Positions 389 through 5,624 of a DNA stretch of 5,690 nucleotides are shown here, piece by piece. The translations under genes were made by a program, and so were the position numbers. This DNA comes from an uncultured archaeon (GTDB lineage Archaea; Iainarchaeota; Iainarchaeia; Iainarchaeales; CSSED10-239): contig CAZQEL010000029.1 of NCBI GenBank assembly GCA_964591795.1, forward strand, positions 1,015 through 6,704, in the 5' to 3' direction. Under the pieces are notes generated by a model. It was not told the DNA's origin, did no database searches, and worked only from the letters and a program-made list of their open reading frames with translations. Position 1 is the stretch's first letter. Every line of letters starts with the position of its first letter.

Positions 389-667
389 ATGGAATATTTA
401 ATAAATGGAAAAATTGAAGGCATCATAAAAATAATAAAGTCAGAAAAAGATCTTACCACTTCAAAAAATAAAATAATTGTAATTAAAGAAGTGACCTTAG
501 AAATATTACCAAGATTGCATAACGTTAAAGGCATTATCGTTGAAAAAGGAAGTAAACTATCACATATTACTATATTTTTAAGAGAAATTGGAATACCAAT
601 GGTAAGAATACCAAATGCTTTAAAGAAATATAAAGATAAAGAAAAAATTAATCTTCAAAAACTTTAA
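389..667 (+). CDS. Stand-alone PEP-utilising enzyme mobile ('swivel', phosphohistidine) domain protein, 92 aa
   Basis: KIIVIKEVTLEILPRLHNVKGIIVEKGSKLSHITIFLREIGIPMV matches the PEP-utilizers mobile-domain pattern (..ILV....P......aaGiite.Gg.tSHaAi.aRelGIPaV), including the Ser-His catalytic dipeptide. The N-terminal G..EG motif is also present. A purine-rich AAGGA lies 8 nt upstream of the ATG. Stop TAA. Confidence 0.8.
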   Translation: MEYLINGKIEGIIKIIKSEKDLTTSKNKIIVIKEVTLEILPRLHNVKGIIVEKGSKLSHITIFLREIGIPMVRIPNALKKYKDKEKINLQKL

Positions 668-2322: not shown

Positions 2323-3369
2323 TTATGTATTATTTGATTTCGCCATTACCTTTTCTAATAATTTTTTAGTTTCAGGGTTATCTATAAAATCCATTAAGTT
2401 AAATTGCTCATAGAATCTATCCATTGTATCTTCAAATCTTTCTTTAATTTCGTTTATTTCAAAAACTGTGTTTACAGATAATTCTTCTAAGTTAAGATTA
2501 TTTTCTATATAATAATTCTTCATATCACTTAAACAATTATGAATTGCTATATAATCCAAAAAAGAATTATAAGCTTCAATTCCTAATTTTTTTAATTGAT
2601 AATCTTCAATTTTATTATACATTTTAGTAAAATAAATAATAAAATCTGAAAAATTGTTTATTATATTGTATTCATCTTTGAAGTAAGGTTTTAGTTTTAG
2701 TAGCTTTCTAGTGTTTTCTTCTAAGAAATTAAAATTACCATTATATGCTTGTTCTAACATTTGATCTTTTAATTGATACAATTGATAAATTTCTGAATCG
2801 TTTGAATAATATTGTTTTTTTCTAAATTCTTTAGAACTCATTATCTTTGATTGTTCAATTATATTTTCACTAACTGTATTATAGATTTCTTCTTCTGATA
2901 TATCTTTTATATCTAGTTGTATTAATTTAGAATAATTTATTTCAGGATTATAAGATACAGGAGTAATTTGTCCATACTTATACCACATTACTGGTAATCC
3001 TAAATTTAGTTTGTTATTAATTTGAACAACTAGTTTTTGCATCTGTGTTCGTGTTGGTTTTTGCCCAATTATGCTATAAATATAATCATTTATTTTTGAA
3101 AATAAATAATATATTTTTTGTTTATGTTCTAATTTTATTTTAAAATTAAAATAAACGTCTGAAATTTGATTTACTTTGATATTTAGAAAAGCCTCTGATA
3201 ATAAATACACTTTATCATTAGCAACAACTAATTTTTCTTTAACTAGATTTAAAATAATTCTATTAACTGTTTCTTTAGGTATATTTATTCTTTTAGAGAT
3301 TTCATCAACAGTTGATTTGGGATTTTGAGTTAAATTTAACATTATTTTACTAAAATTTCCTAAGCTCAT
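2323..3369 (-). CDS. Winged helix-turn-helix (MarR/ArsR-like N-terminal domain) protein with a ~280-aa uncharacterised, largely helical C-terminal region, 348 aa
   Basis: The N-terminus KSTVDEISKRINIPKETVNRIILNLVKEKLVVANDKVYLLSE follows the classic wHTH pattern (recognition helix, then beta-hairpin wing). I see no Walker or nuclease motifs in the rest. A purine-rich AAAGGAT lies upstream of the ATG at 3369. Stop TAA at 2323-2325. Confidence 0.75.
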   Translation of the reverse strand: MSLGNFSKIMLNLTQNPKSTVDEISKRINIPKETVNRIILNLVKEKLVVANDKVYLLSEAFLNIKVNQISDVYFNFKIKLEHKQKIYYLFSKINDYIYSIIGQKPTRTQMQKLVVQINNKLNLGLPVMWYKYGQITPVSYNPEINYSKLIQLDIKDISEEEIYNTVSENIIEQSKIMSSKEFRKKQYYSNDSEIYQLYQLKDQMLEQAYNGNFNFLEENTRKLLKLKPYFKDEYNIINNFSDFIIYFTKMYNKIEDYQLKKLGIEAYNSFLDYIAIHNCLSDMKNYYIENNLNLEELSVNTVFEINEIKERFEDTMDRFYEQFNLMDFIDNPETKKLLEKVMAKSNNT

Positions 3370-3424
3370 TTTTAATTATCCTTTTTCAATCTTTAATATA
3401 TTTCAGTTTATCTAGATCTTTGTA

Positions 3425-3480
3425 ACATATATATGTGCAAACCTATATATATATGTTTGCTTTATTTAAACAATTAATTC
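3425..3480. promoter_or_regulatory. Palindrome-rich divergent control region between the wHTH gene and the PIN-like gene
   Basis: A perfect 12-nt palindrome ACATATATATGT (3425-3436) is immediately followed by GCAAAC-ctatatatatat-GTTTGC (3437-3460). The segment 3443-3480 recurs with small indels at 5174-5208. Confidence 0.45.
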
Positions 3481-3500
3481 GTATTTTGATAATTTAATAC

Positions 3501-3515
3501 CAAAAGCTTTATATA
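3501..3515 (+). promoter_or_regulatory. BRE/TATA-like promoter element for the PIN-like gene
   Basis: caaaagc TTTATATA: an A-rich BRE-like stretch followed by a TATA box at 3508-3515. It lies 45 nt upstream of GTG 3560 and 81 nt upstream of ATG 3596. Confidence 0.4.
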
Positions 3516-3559
3516 GGATTAGATATATAGATAAATATAACGTAAGATATACATAAATA

Positions 3560-4114
3560 GTGATTATTATTGATTCAAGAATATTAGAAATATTAATGTT
3601 ATTTGACAAAAAGTCAAAAATAGTGATTGATACTAACATGTACATATTTAATTATGAATTTATCACGGACAAAGTTCCAAAATATGATTGCCAAACAAAG
3701 ATAAAAAAAGAAAATGTAGGCCTTATTTTTAAATATTTAGAAGAGAAACAAATATCTGTAGTAGTACCCAAAATAATATTTAATGAAATTAAAAAAAAAA
3801 TGACTCAATTTAGATATATCTACAATAAAGACATAATCTTTGGTAAATTAAACATTATTGAAGACAAAGACGAAATCTTTGAAATAGATAATAGACCATT
3901 AGCAGAACAACTATTTTATGAATCATCAACTGATTTAATGATATACATTTACTGTAAGGAAAAAGAAATACAAATCATCATAACAGATAACACAACAGAT
4001 TTTGATGAATCTGAAAAAAGATACAACAGAAGCATAAACAAAAGCAAGATAATGATAACAATTGCAGGAATCGCAGACACTTACAAAGCAATAAGTAAAA
4101 AGAAGATAAAATAA
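3560..4114 (+). CDS. PIN-domain-like putative ribonuclease with a ~35-aa basic C-terminal extension, 184 aa (172 aa if ATG 3596 is the start)
   Basis: The PIN acidic signature appears in the right order and spacing: IVIDTN (first Asp), IIFNEIKK (Glu), SSTDLMIYIY (Asp), IIITDNTTDFDE (distal Asp residues). The tracked start is GTG 3560. ATG 3596 (MLFDKKSKIVIDTN) is an equally plausible start and gives a typical short lead-in to the DTN motif. The stop TAA at 4112-4114 overlaps the next ATG. Confidence 0.65.
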   Translation: MIIIDSRILEILMLFDKKSKIVIDTNMYIFNYEFITDKVPKYDCQTKIKKENVGLIFKYLEEKQISVVVPKIIFNEIKKKMTQFRYIYNKDIIFGKLNIIEDKDEIFEIDNRPLAEQLFYESSTDLMIYIYCKEKEIQIIITDNTTDFDESEKRYNRSINKSKIMITIAGIADTYKAISKKKIK

Positions 4115-4281
4115 TGGGAAAAATATTTGAATTAATCGCAGGAAGATTATTAGGATTAGTATTAATATTCGCGTTTATTGATTCTGGAAATCAAATACTT
4201 CGTTCTGCAGGATTAATGACTCTTGGAATAGTAGTTTTAGTTGTCGCATTGTTCTTAATTGCAATGTTCTTTAAAAAATAA
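4114..4281 (+). CDS. Untracked 55-aa two-transmembrane-helix microprotein, translationally coupled to the PIN-like gene
   Basis: My own translation: MGKIFELIAGRLLGLVLIFAFIDSGNQILRSAGLMTLGIVVLVVALFLIAMFFKK*. It has two hydrophobic helices, a polar DSGNQILRS loop and a KK C-terminus. Its ATG overlaps the upstream stop as TAATG (4112-4116). The region is noticeably more GC-rich than the surrounding spacers. A hairpin terminator follows directly. Confidence 0.6.
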   Translation: MGKIFELIAGRLLGLVLIFAFIDSGNQILRSAGLMTLGIVVLVVALFLIAMFFKK

Positions 4282-4286
4282 ACCTA

Positions 4287-4319
4287 AATAGCGACATAGT
4301 CGCTATTAATACTATTTTT
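4287..4319 (+). terminator. Hairpin + T-tract terminator-like element (possibly bidirectional)
   Basis: AATAGCGAC-ata-GTCGCTATT forms a perfect 9-bp stem with a 3-nt loop (4287-4307). TTTTT follows at 4315-4319. The opposite strand also runs into a T-tract (complement of 4273-4278). The element sits 6 nt after the micro-ORF stop and is the only GC-containing perfect stem in this AT-rich spacer. Confidence 0.5.
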
Positions 4320-4927: not shown

Positions 4928-5143
4928 TTAACAAATAGGACACAATAAATAATCATTAATTTTTAGTGGAAAAATAGGGATGAAAAATAAAGTAAACCAT
5001 TCTGTTCTTTTTATAAATTGATAATAAACTTCATTATTACAATTTGTACATTTAATAAGAATAGTAGATCCATAATTTTTTGTAGTTGTATAACCCCAAC
5101 CAAATATAATAAATCCTTTTTCATTCATTTTAATAATTTCCAT
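4928..5143 (-). CDS. Small zinc-ribbon membrane protein (CxxC...hydrophobic segment...CxxC), 71 aa
   Basis: FIIFGWGYTTTKNYG...CTNCNN...WFTLFFIPIFPL...CPIC contains two CxxC pairs flanking a hydrophobic FTLFFIPxxP segment. This pattern recalls a widespread family of small zinc-ribbon proteins, but I am not certain of the family name. The alternative start Met6 is at 5128. There is no purine-rich SD; only AT-rich TATA-like tracts lie 15-40 nt upstream, so the leader may be short or absent. Confidence 0.65.
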   Translation of the reverse strand: MEIIKMNEKGFIIFGWGYTTTKNYGSTILIKCTNCNNEVYYQFIKRTEWFTLFFIPIFPLKINDYLLCPIC

Positions 5144-5208
5144 TTATATATTAATAATTATATAAATATGATTCTATATATATGTTTCTTTATTTTTACC
5201 AATTATTC
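5144..5208 (-). promoter_or_regulatory. Upstream region of the zinc-ribbon gene, containing a copy of the motif also found at 3443-3480
   Basis: 5174-5208 (ctatatatatgtttctttatttttaccaattattc) aligns with 3443-3480 (ctatatatatatgtttgctttatttaaacaattaattc) with three small indels. TATA-like tracts lie between the motif and the ATG. Confidence 0.4.
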
Positions 5209-5278: not shown

Positions 5279-5539
5279 TTAATATCTCCTTTTATTAGAA
5301 GTATTATGCCTTCTTCCTTTATCTTTATATGAATCTTTAATATAAGATGAATCTTCTTTTTTTAAATTTTCAAAGGTTGGTTCAGTATACCCTAGTTGTT
5401 TTAAAGCTTGATCAAATATTTTTGTAAAGCTTAGGTTATTATCTTGTACAAACTTATCTTGACTATTTGTAATCCTAATATTTATTCTAACATTTCTTCT
5501 TTCTGGAGAATAATCTCTTTTTACATCTTCTAGTTTCAT
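5279..5539 (-). CDS. Small ribbon-helix-helix DNA-binding protein, 86 aa (paralog copy 2)
   Basis: MKLEDVKRDYSPERRNVRINIRITNSQDKFVQDNNLSFTKIFDQALKQLGYTEPTFENLKKEDSSYIKDSYKDKGR.. has 68/76 identical residues with copy 1 before the tails diverge. All 8 substitutions are conservative or between polar residues (K/R, E/D, Y/F, L/I, V/N, Q/K, N/D). I place the start at ATG 5539-5537 (GTGAT + 4 nt). The tracked ATG 5572 lies inside the conserved promoter block only about 14 nt from the TATA box, and copy 1 has no ATG there (C instead of T). Confidence 0.8.
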   Translation of the reverse strand: MKLEDVKRDYSPERRNVRINIRITNSQDKFVQDNNLSFTKIFDQALKQLGYTEPTFENLKKEDSSYIKDSYKDKGRRHNTSNKRRY

Positions 5540-5624
5540 GTTTATCACGATAGGAGTCTGTTGTACATACATTAGACACAGAATATTTATAAATAGATCG
5601 GAATAGTAAAATATAATAAAGAAA
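5313..5624 (-). repeat. Direct repeat copy B (RHH CDS + 5'UTR + promoter)
   Basis: See copy A (1808-2122). Same orientation, offset 3505 nt. Confidence 0.85.
5561..5603 (-). promoter_or_regulatory. Conserved promoter/operator block of RHH copy 2 (TATA-like box 5586-5595)
   Basis: 42/43 identical to 2056-2098, with the same 47-nt TATA-to-ATG spacing and the same GTGAT SD-like element (5548-5544). Confidence 0.6.

Follow-up and report, generated by a model that had tools for sequence, protein, structure and literature searches.

The window analysed here—5,690 nt of contig CAZQEL010000029.1, from an uncultured archaeon—has a G+C content of 21% and carries, near its middle, two divergent genes whose families occur side by side in almost every related locus that extends far enough to show it. 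One gene encodes a 348-amino acid (aa) protein with an N-terminal winged helix-turn-helix (wHTH) followed by a large domain that resembles nothing in the libraries we searched; the other encodes a 184-aa PIN-domain protein. We infer, on balance and with modest confidence, that the pair functions as a mobile, two-gene toxin–antitoxin (TA)-like or defence module of uncultured, AT-rich archaea. The pairing holds although the orientation does not: the genes are head-to-head in the window and its closer relatives, and tail-to-tail in a distant subfamily.

A first-pass annotation, made from the letters of the window alone, had described these two genes, together with a small membrane-protein gene that overlaps the second, as a divergent, three-component unit unlike any described type. 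All of the open reading frames (ORFs) it named are present at the positions it gave, and the features that matter here are the following.

2323–3369 (−): wHTH partner gene, 348 aa (ORF list)
3172–3369 (−): wHTH DNA-binding domain, residues ~1–66 (Pfam HTH_24, Foldseek)
2326–3162 (−): uncharacterised C-terminal domain, residues ~70–348 (no library match)
3370–3559: shared divergent control region, 190 bp, between the wHTH and PIN genes
3437–3460: near-perfect palindrome, 24 nt, GCAAAC-N12 (TA-rich)-GTTTGC, over a conserved TATATATA block
3508–3515 (+): conserved TTTATATA block, ~45 nt upstream of the PIN GTG (spacer alignment)
3560–4114 (+): PIN-domain gene, 184 aa, GTG start (ORF list)
4114–4281 (+): microprotein gene, 55 aa, two transmembrane segments (ORF list)
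4287–4307: GC-rich hairpin with a 9-bp stem, then T-rich sequence; terminator-like

The wHTH and PIN genes are no chance ORFs, since homologues of both were found and both proteins give confident AlphaFold2 models. An alternative ATG lies at 3596 in the PIN gene; the N-terminal extension that the GTG start provides is kept among homologues. The annotation had remarked that the PIN gene lacks an upstream, co-oriented partner, and the ORF list of the window indeed holds no such frame before 3560.

Conservation of the gene pair

A word-indexed search returned 18 homologues of the wHTH protein and, with a profile, nine of the PIN protein, all of them from metagenomes or unannotated metagenome-assembled genomes. 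The pair is head-to-head in every one of these loci with enough sequence on the relevant side, except one (L005, discussed below), and when two clusters of PIN-like proteins were looked up from the PIN side, both proved to have a wHTH neighbor. Divergent pairs are found in the following loci.

The window, L001 (two pairs), L002, L004, L007–L010, L011/L012, L006 and L014
L015 (two pairs), L016, L049 and L050–L054 (two tandem pairs)

Identities to the window proteins fall together as relatives become more distant, and by this measure the two proteins co-diverge.

L002: wHTH 87%, PIN 80%
L015a: wHTH ~80% (nucleotide), PIN 70%
L007/L011: wHTH ~61%, PIN 43–45%
L006: wHTH 36%, PIN 22–27%

The family is much larger than this set. 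When 1.84 billion representatives were searched exhaustively with a profile, at least 219 wHTH-family clusters emerged at E ≤ 1e-3, and 157 at the stricter limit of E ≤ 1e-10; among the matches listed, most are 300–390 aa long and align over most of their length. For a distant subfamily, in which the wHTH protein is ~20–25% identical to that of the window, 19 metagenome loci were retrieved in addition to L029. In all of the distant loci with enough downstream DNA (15/15), the wHTH gene faces a convergent PIN gene of ~135 aa; in L048 the PIN gene is divergent, and encodes 160 aa. The 3′ ends of the convergent genes often overlap, by 4–33 nt, and the two genes have no spacer in common; L032 1584–3080 and L042 2068–3606, within the series L029–L047, are examples. 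Several distant loci also have, upstream of the wHTH gene and divergent from it, a gene of ~93 aa and one of ~100–130 aa.

The distant PIN partners are recognized directly by Pfam: 14/14 match PIN (PF01850) at E ≤ 0.01, and the one displayed in full scores above the gathering thresholds of both PIN and PIN_3. Most have the motif TRN..HF where the window family has TDN..DF. Because these proteins are homologous to the PIN protein of the window (see below), the same two families have stayed adjacent across deep divergence and a change of orientation. Divergent pairing, which was initially taken to define the layout, is thus not its defining feature. Among the loci examined, the two genes were never seen on the same strand in one operon.

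The PIN-domain protein

The 184-aa protein was at first called PIN-like by eye, and its predicted structure agrees. The AlphaFold2 model (predicted local distance difference test score, pLDDT, 86.9) has as its top Foldseek matches in the PDB 1y82, 1v96, 1ye5, 5h4g (VapC4) and 2bsq (FitB), with probabilities of 0.95–1.0 and target-normalised template-modelling scores of 0.5–0.65. HARP, the protein-only RNase P, is among the weaker fold matches, at rank 37. At 184 aa the protein is larger than VapC, and helical insertions in the PIN core are predicted. Its best Pfam match, PIN_12 (PF16289, formerly DUF4935), is sub-threshold—27.0 bits, with a cutoff of 32—and spans only positions 1–49 of the 172 in the profile; seven of the nine PIN-family members have sub-threshold matches to PIN_12, too.

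In profile–profile comparison by hhalign, the window PIN family matches the distant, Pfam-verified PIN family at 95.8% probability (E 7e-9, 117 columns), and D24, E76, D125 and D147 fall on D6, E52, D96 and [D/H]118. The acidic residues of the window protein are D24 (in DTN), E76 (NEI), D125 (S-T-D), and D143 and D147 (ITDNTTDF). Across the nine homologues D24, E76, S123, D125, T142 and D147, plus D/E143, are invariant or conserved, and in the model the conserved acidic residues are placed like PIN catalytic residues with respect to the predicted strands, matching the PIN pattern of acidic positions after beta1, in alpha3, before alpha5 and after beta4. Because of the Foldseek matches and the match to a Pfam-verified family, we regard the 184-aa protein as a true PIN-domain protein, as far as sequence and model can tell, though it lies below Pfam thresholds. 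It is presumably a nuclease.

The control region and the question of shared regulation

The intergenic DNA was described as a palindrome-rich, 190-bp spacer. A divergent spacer of this length it is, but its richness in palindromes is upheld only in part: 3370–3559 holds one near-perfect palindrome, at 3437–3460, with overlapping (TA)n self-complementarity, and much of the complementarity, that of the palindrome included, is what any TA-repeat yields anyway. Spacer length is kept at 164–197 bp in seven divergent relatives, and is greater in L049 (267 bp) and in L006 (263 bp, aligned separately). When eight spacers are aligned, two TA-rich blocks are invariant, one inside the palindrome and the other TTTATATA, at 3508–3515. 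Short arms of the AAC...GTT type flank the TATATATA core in most of the eight aligned relatives. The two blocks are candidate divergent archaeal TATA boxes, of which TTTATATA would serve the PIN gene, and the palindrome, which overlaps the candidate box of the wHTH gene, may be an operator.

At the other end of the unit, the terminator hairpin noticed in the first pass holds up. Four of the nine base pairs in the stem are G–C, the folding z-score is −4.4, and two terminator-like sites were found where shuffled sequences lead one to expect 0.1. An Rfam scan of the whole window (E ≤ 1) matched no RNA element, and a sigma-70 promoter scan gave 22 sites compared with 23.1 in shuffles, the consensus being irrelevant for an archaeon.

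An arrangement of this kind invites another explanation: the wHTH protein might be only a transcription factor that responds to a ligand and turns PIN expression on or off, its C-terminal domain binding an effector and neither touching nor neutralizing the nuclease. The wHTH is of a type common among archaeal regulators, the spacers of the window subfamily carry conserved TATA-like blocks and a palindrome, and the related DUF4935/PIN_12 genes are reported as usually monocistronic (Matelska et al. 2017, PMC5499597). The distant subfamily is where this explanation falters. There the genes lie tail-to-tail without a common promoter, and the PIN gene often ends another operon (after hsdR, for example), yet the two are paired in 15 of 15 loci. 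Because cis-regulation from a shared operator hardly explains convergent pairs, we consider regulation of this sort, by itself, unlikely.

The wHTH partner protein

The wHTH noticed in the first pass is secure. Pfam HTH_24 matches residues 8–48 with 27.2 bits (cutoff 21.9), and there are below-cutoff matches to TrmB, MarR and Rrf2. The AlphaFold2 model of the protein, built from 18 homologues, has a pLDDT of 87.8. In it, the wHTH leads into a mixed region of two helices, a beta-hairpin and short helices, and this into a long helical bundle, so that the C-terminal ~280 aa are predicted to be mostly alpha-helical. When the full-length model is compared with the PDB and BFVD by Foldseek, the matches (AspA, Zalpha, IclR and Csa3) are confined to the wHTH. 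The same is true of the PADLOC and NCBIfam matches—Csa3, CasR, ArsR, CARF and the SoFic C-terminal wHTH—and of PDB sequence-profile searches with close and broad family profiles. Among the 63 broad family members, likewise, Pfam, PADLOC and NCBIfam match the N-terminal wHTH alone.

Beyond approximately residue 65 the protein matches nothing in Pfam, NCBIfam, PADLOC, PHROGs, the PDB or BFVD. The C-terminal ~280 aa, unassignable by eye, thus prove unassignable by library and fold search as well, and belong to no known family that these searches could reveal. Neither is there any Rep, primase, helicase or integrase signal in the protein (Pfam, PHROGs and NCBIfam; PDB and BFVD fold searches). The outcomes that the annotation had named as refuting its reading thus did not occur: the PIN protein has the expected fold, the genes co-occur, and this domain leads to no Rep or other known family. 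Three residues of this domain are invariant throughout the family—K112, P126 and G133—and five more are nearly so: Y130, Y187, Y198, F267 and W271.

The first-pass annotation had offered one idea about this domain, that a stretch of it loosely resembles the Panacea (DUF4065) antitoxin domain. If so, the protein would be a diverged Panacea antitoxin (PanA) fused to a wHTH, and the PIN protein its PanT toxin. The idea found no support in profile hidden Markov models (HMMs) and no significant support, by the usual standards, in profile–profile alignment. The Panacea HMM (PF13274, SocA_Panacea) matches 0/18 close members of the wHTH family at E ≤ 10, and 0/63 broad members at E ≤ 0.01. As a control, 11 diverse DUF4065 proteins were collected from phage genomes, and all 11 match PF13274. 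(One control gene, L017, from Cylindrospermopsis phage Cr-LKS4, OQ625504.1 87380–89317, has annotated CRISPR arrays on both sides.) Against the Panacea alignment, hhalign gives a probability of 3.4% for the close profile, and of 1.2% (P = 0.046) for the broad one, and the idea was set aside as unproven.

A certain resemblance persists, nonetheless. The broad-profile alignment extends over 89 columns in the very register proposed earlier, and K112, P126 and G133 fall on the conserved K (of QKL), P (of PLF) and G (of GPV) of Panacea. In a column-shuffle test only 1/200 scores equaled or exceeded that of the broad-profile alignment. The null is a lenient one, however, and when realignment is turned off, the best local alignment shifts to another segment of the protein. 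Some PanA proteins do have an N-terminal HTH, and archaea are among the organisms that carry Panacea (Kurata et al. 2022, PMC8832971). The region to be explained is ~280 aa long, on the other hand, compared with ~110 aa for Panacea, and PanA and PanT are described as operons. We take the resemblance as a faint lead rather than evidence of membership, and think a Panacea origin for this domain quite improbable.

The microprotein and its substitutes

Hydropathy analysis of the 55-aa protein gives the two hydrophobic segments that were claimed for it, and its gene does overlap the PIN gene: base 4114 both ends the PIN stop codon and begins the microprotein ATG (TAATG). Homologues exist. That of L015/L016 is 62 aa long, 52% identical over 50 aa, and encoded downstream of the PIN gene and overlapping it; that of L011/L012 is 57 aa long and encoded directly downstream. 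The relatives have in common the motif FxFIxSG(D/N)...SAG..LG.

Relatives of the microprotein are present in 3 of the ~12 pair lineages examined. None lies at the 3′ side of the PIN gene in L002, the closest relative, whose PIN protein is 80% identical to that of the window, nor in L006 or L014. A small SNase-like or HNH-like gene takes the position in L049, in L007/L008 and in the second pair of L001, accompanied in the latter two by an unrelated, short transmembrane peptide. The microprotein thus belongs to a real small family, but is a facultative accessory of the pair. Of the three-component unit first proposed, two genes remain as the conserved core.

The alternative downstream genes lie at L007 8828–9215, L049 1332–1616 and L001 2319–3014. 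The SNase-like protein is 94–95 aa long, the HNH_3-like protein 98 aa, and the second family of short transmembrane peptides (L007 and L001) has members of 31 and 53 aa that are 44% identical over 27 aa.

Genomic context and mobility

The DNA homology between the window and L002 spans positions 2333 to 4104 only—the two genes and their spacer—and the flanks vary between close relatives: an LD-cluster4 gene in L001 and L002, versus a ribbon-helix-helix (RHH)-like gene in the window. Several short contigs carry diverged pairs in tandem (L001 347–1402 and 3018–4806; L015 2–1641 and 2319–4322; L050 106–1831 and 1878–3693), which suggests that paralogous cassettes become arrayed next to each other. 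Other pairs lie within chromosomal contigs near housekeeping genes (L004 and L006, the latter a 193-kb contig).

In the window subfamily, the neighbors include restriction–modification (R-M) methylases and endonucleases, HNH proteins, SLFN-type ATPases, nSTAND NTPases, Fic and NUDIX proteins, and an AbiE-like pair. PIN genes of the distant subfamily are often preceded, on their own strand, by hsdR and other co-oriented genes, and frequently close the series. In L042 a 943-aa protein matches HsdR (PDB 2w00) with E 3e-33, and in L029 an HsdM_N gene abuts the PIN gene; two proteins from the stretch that separates hsdR from the PIN gene in distant loci, 482 aa and 243 aa long, matched nothing in PDB sequence searches. 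Judged by such boundaries and surroundings, the pair is a mobile cassette that is inherited as a unit and resides in contexts resembling defence islands.

The window has a further feature. Two direct copies of a 300-nt sequence (1807–2106 and 5312–5611; 86% identical, 3505 nt apart) flank the module. Each of them encodes an RHH-like protein of ~90–97 aa (1771–2043(−) and 5279–5572(−)) and includes ~60 nt of conserved upstream DNA. Together with the AT-rich, palindromic spacer and the shortness of the contigs, these repeats and their paralogous genes might be taken for signs of a small integrated plasmid or virus, with the module as its replication or maintenance unit, the wHTH protein as a Rep-like initiator and the spacer as the origin. 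The partner protein gave no replication or integration signal in libraries or fold searches, however, pairs occur in chromosomes (L004 and L006) and as tandem duplicates, and the distant subfamily has no shared spacer that could serve as an origin; we rate the possibility as very slight. Equally slender is the prospect of a housekeeping nuclease for RNA processing that has a specificity factor of its own. In its favor, PIN domains act in rRNA and tRNA maturation and HARP is a weak fold match; against it stand the patchy distribution, two copies per short contig, variable flanks, defence neighbors and the loss of the PIN gene in one relative. Context, tandem duplicates and cassette-like boundaries argue for a TA or defence module, instead.

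Several other features of the window and its relatives were noted along the way. A 94-aa homologue of the RHH-like proteins is encoded at L006 2281–2565, divergently from the AbiE-like pair of that locus, which consists of a 345-aa wHTH protein and a DUF6036 protein. An ORF of 406 aa at 648–1868(−) has one transmembrane segment, a long stretch resembling a coiled coil and, at its C-terminus, a domain that contains Cys, and matches no family; it overlaps the first RHH-like gene by ~100 nt, and an internal ATG by the RHH stop codon is the likelier start. At 389–667(+), after an ORF that leaves the window at its left end, is a gene for a 92-aa, stand-alone mobile (swivelling phosphohistidine) domain of PEP-utilising enzymes (PF00391, E 1.5e-12). 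A 71-aa Zn_ribbon_15 protein (31 bits, cutoff 28.9) is encoded at 4928–5143(−), downstream of the second RHH-like gene, and the DNA upstream of its gene, 5175–5205, resembles spacer positions 3446–3476 (81% over 31 nt).

How the module might work

If the pair is indeed a TA-like or defence module, the VapC-like PIN nuclease would be its effector, presumably a Mg2+-dependent RNase and toxic when unrestrained, and the ~350-aa wHTH protein its obligate partner. The wHTH of the partner probably binds the palindrome that covers the TATA-rich element in the 190-bp spacer, and would thereby keep its own gene, and perhaps the PIN gene, repressed. The ~280-aa helical domain would either bind and restrain the nuclease, thereby neutralizing it, or sense a trigger. 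The module might act against viruses. The two genes are predicted to form separate transcripts. Because the window has them head-to-head and the distant subfamily tail-to-tail, they are more likely to be linked at the level of protein than through a shared operator alone. The microprotein, an optional accessory, might serve as a membrane anchor or act as a second effector.

A number of observations weigh against all this. No member of the wHTH family bears a name in the source records, and no system-specific model in PADLOC-DB 2.0 matches either protein, the wHTH protein being matched at the level of its wHTH only and the PIN protein not at all. In L005 an HNH-like gene stands in place of the spacer and the PIN gene, and the wHTH gene is kept. 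In the distant PIN partners the fourth acidic position is often histidine, and because of this some of them may be inactive or altered in catalysis. Finally, type II modules of the classical sort are expressed from one transcript, with an antitoxin that is small; here the partner is twice as large as the nuclease, and the two never share a transcript.

A more novel reading goes further. The pair might be an undescribed archaeal conflict system, in which the wHTH protein, with its new helical domain, is both the sensor and the protein-level restraint of a PIN RNase, the genes keep together over deep divergence without forming an operon, in some cases within type I R-M loci, and accessories—the two-transmembrane microprotein, the SNase-like protein or the HNH-like protein—are plugged in after the PIN gene. 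We hold this more specific proposal tentatively and would give it somewhat less than an even chance. If true, it would amount to a new type of TA or defence system with an unusual, non-operonic logic.

Archaeal immunity and TA biology are little charted, above all in uncultured, AT-rich lineages. Here is a family of at least 219 clusters with a domain of ~280 aa that is absent from Pfam, NCBIfam, PADLOC, PHROGs and the PDB, and that is consistently tied to PIN. The tie persists whether the genes are divergent or convergent, and predictors of TA and defence systems that depend on operons would miss such links. Should the partner prove to be a protein-level restraint or a sensor, it would supply a new neutralizer domain for PIN toxins, and a test case for TA systems that are not operons.

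Comparison with known systems

VapBC is the nearest familiar point of reference. The effector belongs to the VapC group of PIN proteins and has the D/E/D/D set, the partner has a DNA-binding domain, and the module, like VapBC, is mobile, multi-copy and patchy in distribution. The differences are considerable. Neither a small antitoxin upstream nor a common transcript is present, the genes being head-to-head or tail-to-tail, instead; the partner is ~350 aa long with an undescribed domain; and the PIN protein, at 184 aa, is sub-threshold in Pfam.

For the 348-aa protein itself, the closest functional analogy is with AbiE, a type IV TA and abortive infection system in which a wHTH antitoxin, AbiEi, and a nucleotidyltransferase, AbiEii, are encoded in an operon. 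AbiEi, too, is a large antitoxin with an autoregulating, N-terminal wHTH and a C-terminal domain that handles the toxin. Here the toxin would be a PIN protein, not a nucleotidyltransferase of the DUF1814/AbiEii type, and the genes form no operon. No likeness of sequence was found: the AbiE-like wHTH protein of L006, compared with the family profile, gives E = 2.4. PrrC, an anticodon nuclease that resides in type I R-M loci and has an ABC-ATPase domain rather than a PIN domain, offers a parallel of location. PIN genes of the distant subfamily lie directly downstream of hsdR or other hsd genes, on the same strand; there are no hsd genes in the window.

DUF4935/PIN_12 is the best Pfam match of the nuclease, and in both there are helical insertions in the PIN core. 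DUF4935 genes are reported as mostly monocistronic and of unknown function, and many PIN clusters adjoin transcription-factor-like genes (PMC5499597). DUF4935 proteins are ~350 aa long and bacterial, however, with no wHTH partner described, and the match here is sub-threshold. PanA/PanT pairs resemble the module in that their antitoxin domain, which can carry an N-terminal HTH fusion, partners with toxins of many types, and there is the faint likeness of motif; they differ in the size of the domain and in the layout of the genes, which in PanA/PanT form operons (PMC8832971).

A literature search found no paper that describes the pairing of this wHTH family with PIN, and none of the libraries searched holds a matching system, in keeping with the initial impression that the module is unlike any described type. 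As a class, conflict modules with PIN effectors are well known. What is new is the partner family, the pairing without an operon and regardless of orientation, and the optional membrane microprotein.

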